From NCBI RefSeq assembly GCF_003018255.1, contig NZ_CP027440.1: a DNA stretch of 64,000 nt. The stretch is one strand, 5' to 3'. The translations under genes and the position numbers were made by a program. This document shows positions 19,397 through 45,760 of this stretch, piece by piece. The DNA comes from Escherichia coli (lineage in GTDB: Bacteria > Pseudomonadota > Gammaproteobacteria > Enterobacterales > Enterobacteriaceae). The notes beneath the pieces are model-generated. The model did not search any database. It had not been told where the DNA came from and saw only the letters and a list, made by a program, of their open reading frames with translations. Numbering within the stretch: the stretch's first letter is position 1; each line of letters starts with the position of its first letter.

Positions 19397-19455
19397 GGTA
19401 TCCGTTCTGCTGAAGTGTCATGGCGTTGATTTTACGGTGACTCTTCGACAGTGAA

Positions 19456-19486
19456 AAGAAAAAAGGCCGCAGAGCGGCCTTTTTAG
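19456..19486. terminator. Intrinsic terminator downstream of ihfA (symmetric A/T tracts, potentially bidirectional)
   Basis: ggccgc-aga-gcggcc hairpin (19465-19479) flanked by aaaaaaa (19458-19464) and ttttt (19480-19484). Confidence 0.7.
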
Positions 19487-19496
19487 TTAGATCAGA

Positions 19497-19796
19497 TTAC
19501 TCGTCTTTGGGCGAAGCGTTTTCGACCCGGCTTTTTAACTTCTGCCCGGGTCTGAAGGTCACCACGCGCCGTGCTGTAATGGGAATATCCTCGCCCGTTT
19601 TCGGGTTACGTCCCGGGCGTTGATTCTTATCACGCAGATCGAAGTTACCAAAACCAGAGAGTTTCACCTGTTCGCCGTTTTCCAGAGCGCGACGGATCTC
19701 TTCGAAAAACAGTTCAACCAGTTCTTTGGCATCCCGCTTGCTAAGCCCAAGCTTATCAAACAGATATTCTGACATTTCAGCTTTTGTAAGCGCCAT
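19497..19796 (-). CDS. ihfA: Integration host factor alpha subunit
   Basis: 99-aa [55 protein letters not shown]... recognised as IHF-alpha. Confidence 0.97.
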
Positions 19797-19800
19797 AGGT

Positions 19801-22191
<2,391 letters not shown>

Positions 22192-22202
22192 CTATTCCTG
22201 CC

Positions 22203-23228
<1,026 letters not shown>

Positions 23229-23395
23229 TTAGAGCCCATCCCATCAGGCTATTTTACTTGCCATTTTGGTCCCGGGCAGTGCTCGAAATCCTCACGTACT
23301 TAAGTACGCTCCGGTTTCTCCGCGCTGGCCGTGTCCAGACTGGCTGCGACAATTACGCCTGATGAGACAGGCTTTTTATTTTTCAAAACGCGCAT

Positions 23396-23420
23396 ACAAA
23401 AAAAGCCTCCACTGGGAGGC
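23396..23420 (-). terminator. pheST attenuator terminator
   Basis: gcctcc-actg-ggaggc hairpin (23405-23420); on the transcribed (minus) strand it is followed by a U-run (plus-strand A-run 23396-23404); lies between pheM and pheS. Confidence 0.75.
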
Positions 23421-23470
23421 TTTCAGGCGCTGTTTTCCGTTTCTCTTCTCACGCGCTAGCCTCCTGGAGT

Positions 23471-23515
23471 CAGGTGCTAAAGTAAAAAAAGAAGCGGAAA
23501 ATAGCAGCATTCATT
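23471..23515 (-). CDS. pheM: pheST operon leader peptide (Phe-rich, 14 aa)
   Basis: Reverse complement of 23471-23515 reads ATG AAT GCT GCT ATT TTC CGC TTC TTT TTT TAC TTT AGC ACC TGA = [14 protein letters not shown]; five Phe codons. Confidence 0.85.
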
Positions 23516-23599
23516 GCTTGCGTTACCTTTTGGTACTCTTCAAAAGACCTTTATTGAAAAGGCTACGGCGATAAAAGTCAATGTTTTGATGGCGTTGAA

Positions 23600-23627
23600 A
23601 CGAAAAGAGGGAGACTAGCTCCCTCTT
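23600..23627 (-). terminator. Terminator downstream of rplT
   Basis: agagggag-actag-ctccctct hairpin (23606-23626) immediately downstream of the rplT stop, with a U-rich tail on the transcribed strand. Confidence 0.65.
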
Positions 23628-23636
23628 TCAACTGGC

Positions 23637-24020
<384 letters not shown>

Positions 24021-24046
24021 TTAAAAAGTTAAAAAACGTTAACGGC

Positions 24047-24886
<840 letters not shown>

Positions 24887-38499: not shown

Positions 38500-38700
38500 T
38501 GTTTATGTCGGATGCGGCGTGAACGCCTTATCCGGCCTACAAAACTGTGCAAATTCAATATATTGCAGGAAAAACGTAGGCCTGATAAGCGAAGCGCATC
38601 AGGCAGTTTTGCGTTTGTCAGCAGTCTCAAGCGGCGCAGTTACGCCGCCTTTGTAGGAATTAATCGCCGGATGCAAGGTTCACGCCGCATCTGGCAAACA
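38500..38700. repeat. BIME / RIP element (REP - IHF-site - inverted REP, plus an additional REP-like palindrome)
   Basis: gtcggatgcggcgtgaacgccttatccggcctac (REP), then aaaactgtgcaaattcaatatattgcagg (IHF-site-like core), then gtaggcctgataagcgaagcgcatcaggc (inverted REP), plus cgccggatgcaaggttcacgccgcatctggc further on. Confidence 0.7.
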
Positions 38701-45654: not shown

Positions 45655-45760
45655 GTTCACGCCGGATGCGGCGTGAACGCCTTACTCGACCTACAAAACT
45701 ATGCAAATTCAATACATTGCAGGAGTCGAATAGGCCTGACAGGCGTAGCACGTCAGACGG
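45655..45760. repeat. RIP / BIME element (second copy in the window)
   Basis: gccggatgcggcgtgaacgccttactcgacctac + aaaactatgcaaattcaatacattgcagg + aataggcctgacaggcgtagcacgtcagacgg; near-identical in its core to the element at about 38508-38612. Confidence 0.7.

Follow-up and report, generated by a model that had tools for sequence, protein, structure and literature searches.

The segment at 23396-23520 on the minus strand of the analysed window (the whole stretch of DNA studied here, 64 kb of ordinary E. coli chromosome) is the well-described E. coli pheM leader and attenuator, which is intact, already known, and in no way unusual. With a probability of about 0.95, pheM is read here as a trp-type, ribosome-mediated attenuator of pheST(-ihfA) that senses charged tRNA-Phe. 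The elements of this attenuator, its family membership, its conserved pairing potential, and the predicted switch are all observed in the present analysis; for its operation in vivo, we draw on the literature or infer. Phe-tRNA-sensing attenuation of pheST had already been proposed in the initial annotation of this DNA, and the proposal is supported by RefSeq annotation, Rfam family RF01859, folding tests, and earlier work (PMC9291695; PMC5371410). The value of the result lies in quality control: as a positive control, the locus indicates that the thrS-infC-rpmI-rplT-pheMST region is intact and that an attenuator of this kind can be recognized from raw sequence.

Identity of the leader

The Rfam model Phe_leader (RF01859) matches 23396-23520 (minus strand) over model positions 1-125 of 125, with 74.4 bits against a gathering threshold of 55 and an E-value of 1.7e-12 locally or 9.2e-11 over the whole window, and is the top hit of the whole-window gathering scan. 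The matched interval agrees almost to the base with the 23396-23515 given in the initial annotation. RefSeq labels for the leader stretch read "Phe leader region" and "pheST operon leader peptide PheM", and the 150-nt leader is present at an identity of at least 95% in 5425 of 5426 complete E. coli genomes. Weak Rfam matches to sX9, mir-5444, Dictyostelium class I, and a reverse-strand Phe_leader all fell far under gathering and were set aside as chance.

The orthologue of the K-12 pheM/pheST leader (b1715) is recognized by a Phe-rich open reading frame (ORF) that shares its strand with rplT and pheS and lies between them. Its peptide of 14 codons, identical to that of K-12 pheM, places Phe at codons 6, 8, 9, 10, and 12 (beginning at 23499, 23493, 23490, 23487, and 23481, respectively, on the minus strand), such that all five of the cognate codons fall within seven codons, a clustering typical of trp-type attenuators. 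A leader with five Phe codons had been claimed initially with its strand unstated; it is indeed in frame, on the minus strand at 23514-23470. Across the six frames of the window, a 7-codon stretch with at least five Phe codons is unique to pheM, but the cluster is weak as stand-alone evidence because at least one such stretch arises in 23 of 100 Markov simulations of 64 kb; the case for a pheM attenuator rests instead on its Rfam score, on its conservation, and on its location ahead of pheS. The ORF listing for the window had a cut-off of 20 amino acids, and pheM, being shorter, is hence absent from it. A 44-residue ORF at 23376-23510 (minus strand) was considered as a gene and rejected, given that it lies in another frame than pheM, overlaps the attenuator, and is unannotated.

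Table 1. Features of the pheM locus in the window, in order of transcription
Feature	Position	Strand	Basis and remarks
thrS	24887-26815	-	K-12 order and length
infC, rpmI	between thrS and rplT	-	K-12 order and length
rplT	23637-23993	-	K-12 order and length; stop codon 23637-23639
Hairpin directly after rplT stop	23604-23628	-	Fold and conservation; U-rich tail to ~23597
Putative pheM/pheST promoter	23553-23581	-	Sequence and conservation; -35 TTGACT 23581-23576, 17-nt spacer, -10 TTCAAT 23558-23553
Candidate Shine-Dalgarno AAGGU	23525-23529	-	Inferred from sequence and conservation; 10 nt 5' of pheM AUG
pheM leader ORF	23470-23514	-	Translation and RefSeq pheM annotation in 100%-identical genomes; ends UGA
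Segment 1 (5' strand of 1:2 "protector" helix)	23482-23505	-	Minimum-free-energy fold; covers codons 4-11, including four of five Phe codons
Small nested hairpins	23456-23480	-	Span last codons, stop codon, and GGAGGC motif; terminating conformation only; 23469 in loop
Antiterminator 5' strand, GGAGGCUAG-C-GCGU	23451-23464	-	Nascent-transcript fold
Segment 2 (3' strand of 1:2 helix), GUGAGAAGAGAAACGGAAAACAGC	23429-23452	-	Minimum-free-energy fold and alignment
Antiterminator 3' strand, GCGC..AGCCUCC	23415-23430	-	AGCCUCC is 7 of 10 nt of terminator 5' arm
Intrinsic terminator	23398-23424	-	Arm GAAAGCCUCC 23424-23415, loop CAGU, arm GGAGGCUUUU 23410-23401, 7-U run 23404-23398
~147-nt imperfect-palindrome repeat	23232-23378	-	Between attenuator and pheS, within 284-nt spacer from pheM stop to pheS start; terminal inverted repeats
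pheS	22203-23186	-	327 codons and stop; first regulated structural gene; start aligns with K-12 pheS start
pheT	19801-22188	-	Follows pheS

Architecture and proposed mechanism

The remaining hallmarks of a trp-type attenuator are found at the same locus (Table 1). A terminator separates the leader ORF from the structural gene, the regulatory codons lie under a 1:2 helix (23505-23482 paired with 23452-23429), and an antiterminator that excludes the terminator upon stalling is found in silico. The minimum-free-energy fold of the 125-nt RNA from 23396-23520 (minus strand) has a predicted energy of -53.7 kcal/mol (z = -6.05), with none of 200 shuffles equally stable; the 1:2 helix with its inner hairpins is predicted at -36.0, the antiterminator at -17.0, and the terminator hairpin at -14.9 kcal/mol. 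The GC hairpin and U-run that had been described downstream of the leader are present at 23424-23401 and 23404-23398 on the minus strand, and a terminator scan gave a stem of 10 pairs with a 4-nt loop. The 5' strand of the antiterminator nearly duplicates the terminator 3' arm and begins 6 nt past the stop codon (5 nt between).

Together, these elements are compatible with the following sequence of events. Transcription would start upstream of pheM, and a ribosome would translate the 14-codon leader as RNA polymerase proceeds. If Phe-tRNA-Phe were ample, the ribosome would arrive at the UGA and cover GGAGGCU (23464-23458), 6 nt downstream; if the leader were untranslated, the stretch of Phe codons in segment 1 would pair with segment 2. 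Either state would leave the 5' arm of the terminator free, so that the hairpin and U-run would form and transcription would end before pheS. If Phe-tRNA-Phe were scarce, the ribosome would be expected to stall on Phe codons 6, 8-10, or 12 and thereby mask segment 1, upon which GGAGGCUAG..GCGU could pair with GCGC..AGCCUCC as the antiterminator, permitting read-through into pheS and pheT.

The predicted switch on the nascent transcript

The predicted switch was evaluated on RNA cut just before the 3' arm of the terminator, wherein a ribosome footprint (assumed sizes, -15 to +12 or +15) was masked at each codon in turn. With the ribosome absent, on codons 1-4, or at the stop codon, the nascent RNA adopts the 1:2 helix and leaves the terminator 5' arm unpaired; with the ribosome on codons 5-13, the antiterminator forms and AGCCUCC (seven of the ten arm nucleotides) is paired with P ~0.7. 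The ribosome at the stop codon covers the 5' strand of the antiterminator because that strand begins so shortly past the UGA.

In the full-length RNA at equilibrium, the terminator is kept for nearly every masked ribosome position because its hairpin is very stable. The equilibrium fold of the full-length leader was rejected as a test of the switch in favor of the nascent folds, since attenuation is settled before the 3' arm exists. In this modeling, the switch is accordingly visible only under a kinetic, co-transcriptional assumption, which is imposed rather than demonstrated. The check suggested in the initial annotation, namely folding 23199-23520 to confirm alternative pairings, succeeds if carried out co-transcriptionally: both states are recovered on the nascent transcript, but the full-length equilibrium fold keeps the terminator, and the range contains the attenuator but also takes in the ~147-nt repeat that lies outside it.

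Conservation across Enterobacterales

Species-representative genomes were scanned as plain DNA for the PheS N-terminus (M-x-HLAELVA) rather than for the leader; of the 120 loci returned, 99 carry a Phe-rich mini-ORF upstream of pheS. These 99 are essentially all of the Enterobacterales matches whose stored sequence reaches far enough upstream of pheS, and they include Photorhabdus, Providencia, Morganella, Yersinia, Serratia, Rahnella, Erwinia, Pantoea, Pectobacterium, Dickeya, Edwardsiella, and Budvicia. The mini-ORFs keep their in-frame start and stop along with a nearly invariant core, FRFFFYFS(T/A); their N-terminal codons differ, as do their length (13 to ~17 codons or more) and their distance to pheS (112-436 nt).

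An alignment of 96 leaders was assembled, and pairing and covariation statistics were computed on the 95 distinct leaders. In the terminating fold, 93.6% of cells are paired, as opposed to 44-64% in controls with slid partners, and the fold as a whole has nine pairs with compensatory changes; the observed values were reached by none of 500 shuffles. Within this fold, the 1:2 helix is 93.1% paired (with six compensatory pairs), the inner nested hairpin (helix 4) is 86% paired, and the terminator core GCCUCC/GGAGGC, near-invariant across Enterobacterales, is 96-100% paired. The pairing potential of the antiterminator reaches 92.1%, versus 28-59% in slid controls, and the motif alternates evenly between GGAGGC and GGGGGC (i.e., A-U and G-U); no covariation beyond shuffles was found for it among the 95 leaders (447 of 500 shuffles paired at least as well), owing to the near-invariance of both strands and of the terminator core. 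Judged from these alignments, comparative support for the antiterminator is one of conservation and not of covariation. A joint change of terminator arm, terminator partner, and antiterminator in other genera was likewise not seen among the 95 leaders, the core being essentially invariant.

When each of the 96 leaders was folded separately as a nascent transcript, the GCCUCC arm was predicted to be sequestered in 93 with the ribosome on Phe codon 10, in six without a ribosome, and in one with the ribosome at the stop codon. The comparative data are a small, non-novel addition, indicating that the logic of the switch and the core of the peptide have remained almost unchanged across Enterobacterales.

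A separate observation concerns alignment columns 31 and 103 (23496 and 23437), which hold the third position of Phe codon 6 and the base opposite it in segment 2: the pair is C-G in 28 and U-A in 21 of the 95 leaders, with a C-A mismatch in 46. This mismatch in about half of the family may tune the stability of the 1:2 helix.

The near-invariance of FRFFFYFS(T/A), including Arg7, Tyr11, and Ser13, might be taken to reflect a function of the PheM peptide beyond supplying Phe codons, for example, as a nascent chain that could influence how ribosomes stall or are released at the stop codon, or as a micro-peptide acting in trans, of the kind reported for peTrpL. Such a function is improbable. RNA pairing alone can account more simply for the conservation of these residues because their codons sit in the conserved 1:2 helix and inner hairpin.

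The surrounding locus and upstream elements

All of the genes around pheM are on the minus strand, and the order thrS-infC-rpmI-rplT-pheM-pheS-pheT and the gene lengths equal those of K-12, as do the spacings from the rplT stop to the pheM start (122 nt) and from the pheM stop to the pheS start (284 nt). The segment 23150-23660 is 100% identical to the corresponding DNA of Nissle 1917 and ATCC 11775, among other strains; K-12 MG1655 differs from the 511 nt around the leader by nine substitutions, just one of which is inside the leader (position 23469, the first base after the UGA, in a hairpin loop). The description of the locus as an "unperturbed core region" thus stands with respect to K-12 (gene order, lengths, and a single leader substitution) but requires amendment with respect to the spacer, which holds a ~147-nt, insertion-polymorphic repeat (see below).

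Several side observations pertain to the same DNA. In strain FCI48 (locus L004, 1363-1407), the pheM peptide is a variant with Thr14 replaced by Ser; neither this change nor the C/A difference at 23469 affects a Phe codon or a helix of the switch. In the chicken isolate E. coli GPEC60-33-648 (locus L002, 1706-2164), an IS200C element (tnpA) lies in the spacer between rplT and pheM that corresponds to ~23515-23636 of the window, upstream of an otherwise 100% identical leader, and may separate or replace the promoter region of pheM. The enterobacterial sRNA model STnc540 of Rfam matches 19397-19555 (minus strand; 67.4 bits, gathering 38), where it overlaps the 3'-terminal part and 3' UTR of the gene that follows pheT, the last of the pheST operon, which by K-12 synteny would be ihfA. 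The sRNA motif ES036 (CssrF) occurs twice on the same strand, ~7 kb apart, at 38541-38583 (plus strand; 55.4 bits) and 45695-45737 (plus strand; 42.9 bits), against a gathering threshold of 37.6.

Upstream of pheM, the hairpin that directly follows rplT is likely to be the terminator of the upstream rpmI-rplT unit: the fold of 23592-23640 (minus strand) has a predicted energy of -17 kcal/mol (z = -3.36), and no other part of the rplT-pheM spacer is as well conserved as this stem across 94 Enterobacterales loci. A consensus scan, which demands A at -10 position 2, found no sigma-70-like site for pheM; a promoter at 23581-23553 is nevertheless likely on sequence grounds, and 70% or more of the 94 loci retain its putative -35. 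The block AAGGTAACGCAAGCAATG around the candidate Shine-Dalgarno has parts that are more than 90% conserved across the same loci.

The hairpin after rplT bears on an explanation in which the hairpin and U-run downstream of pheM would do no more than terminate constitutively or insulate pheST from the rplT unit, with the Phe mini-ORF an untranslated or unsensed by-product of the U-rich helix strand. The simulated frequency of Phe-codon runs, the dominance of the terminator at equilibrium, and the constraint that the 1:2 helix places on segment 1 as RNA, which could itself conserve a UUY-rich sequence, are all consistent with such a by-product. However, rplT already has a terminator-like hairpin of its own, an in-frame start and stop with FRFFFYFS(T/A) persist in 99 loci while the N-terminal codons and the length vary, and a conserved strand competes for the terminator arm, with a switch predicted in 93 of 96 leaders. 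As pheM is also treated as an attenuation leader in the literature (PMC5371410; PMC9291695), we regard a constitutive terminator as very unlikely.

The repeat in the pheM-pheS spacer

The ~147-nt repeat between the attenuator and pheS, which is not part of the attenuator, has terminal inverted repeats AGCCTGTCTCATCAGGC and GCCTGATGGGATGGGCT and the center GTACTTAAGTAC; it folds into a long hairpin and would be co-transcribed in the pheS 5' UTR upon read-through. The site is occupied here and in K-12, as it is in 4781 of the 5426 E. coli genomes compared; ~12% of the genomes lack the repeat at the site, as do FCI48 and a species-representative E. coli (L044), in which the spacer measures ~139 nt. 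By these sequence comparisons, the repeat is an insertion polymorphism within E. coli, and the pheM-pheS spacer appears as a variable zone accepting small mobile repeats. Copies per genome range from 1 to 8 with a median of 5, and one paralogue lies between qseG and qseE. The center of the repeat may resemble the ERIC/IRU core as represented by primer sequences; the median copy number is nearer to that of RSA (6) than to that of IRU (19). The repeat is probably RSA, as matched on length and copy number, the RSA repeat of K-12 being 150/151 bp in length and present in six copies (PMC5172473, Table 1). The RefSeq feature table of K-12 has no repeat feature at this spacer.

One terminal inverted repeat and its A-rich flank also make up a terminator-like hairpin with a T-run on the opposite strand (23357-23372, plus strand; GCCTGATGAGACAGGC TTTTTATTTT), into which no plus-strand gene reads.

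The high predicted stability of the repeat hairpin in the pheS 5' UTR invites consideration of a scheme in which the main control is post-transcriptional, the 1:2 helix and the repeat hairpin acting chiefly as RNase III or decay determinants of the pheST mRNA and attenuation being secondary. RNase III has been verified in vitro to cut inside the pheM attenuator structure and speeds decay of the downstream message, this decay being faster in the wild type than in an rnc mutant, yet the same study treats RNase III as a layer added to a known attenuator (PMC5371410). The scheme also leaves the Phe codons, the U-run, and the antiterminator unexplained, and the repeat is not essential, given its absence from the aforementioned E. 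coli genomes and from most other genera (with spacers of 112-436 nt); primary control at the level of decay is thus judged highly improbable. Least probable of all is a ribosome-independent switch in which the leader would bind uncharged tRNA-Phe (in the manner of a T-box), a small ligand, or PheRS: mutually exclusive structures are present in the folds, and the protein encoded by the neighboring thrS autoregulates its gene by way of the leader, but no riboswitch or T-box Rfam model matched 22900-24100 even at E-values up to 1, the sole family match being the leader-peptide class Phe_leader, and the geometry suits a ribosome sensor (Phe codons in segment 1 and a stop codon 6 nt before the antiterminator strand). 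Ribosome-mediated attenuation remains the preferred reading of pheM.

Comparison with known systems

The original demonstrations of pheM attenuation were reportedly those of Fayat et al. in 1983 and Springer et al. in 1983 and 1985 (J Mol Biol). Published work describes pheM as encoding a leader peptide through which pheMST is attenuated, and as a site of NusA-independent RNA polymerase pausing whose half-life is ~25 s (PMC9291695). Cleavage of the pheM RNA by RNase III is likewise in the literature (PMC5371410), and the present findings agree with this picture throughout.

The closest relative is the K-12 pheM (b1715)/pheST attenuator, which shares gene order, spacing, peptide, and all of the sequence bar one base, the position matching 23469 being A in K-12 and C here. 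Orthologous leaders elsewhere in the Enterobacterales (Salmonella-like, Yersinia, Serratia, Photorhabdus, Providencia, Erwinia, and Pectobacterium, among others) have the peptide core, the terminator core, and the predicted switch in common with it; they differ in N-terminal residues, leader length, distance to pheS, and the choice of GGAGGC or GGGGGC.

More distantly, pheM resembles the classical trpL, his, leu, thr, and pheA (pheL) leaders in its short ORF rich in cognate codons, its 1:2, 2:3, and 3:4 segments, and its intrinsic terminator, as well as in the RNA polymerase pause that trpL and other classical leaders also exhibit (PMC9291695). Whereas the classical leaders control biosynthetic operons, pheM controls an aminoacyl-tRNA synthetase operon; its NusA-independent pause is unlike those of hisL, trpL, leuL, and pheL (PMC9291695), and, compared with the classical leaders, its antiterminator 5' strand lies just 6 nt beyond the stop codon.
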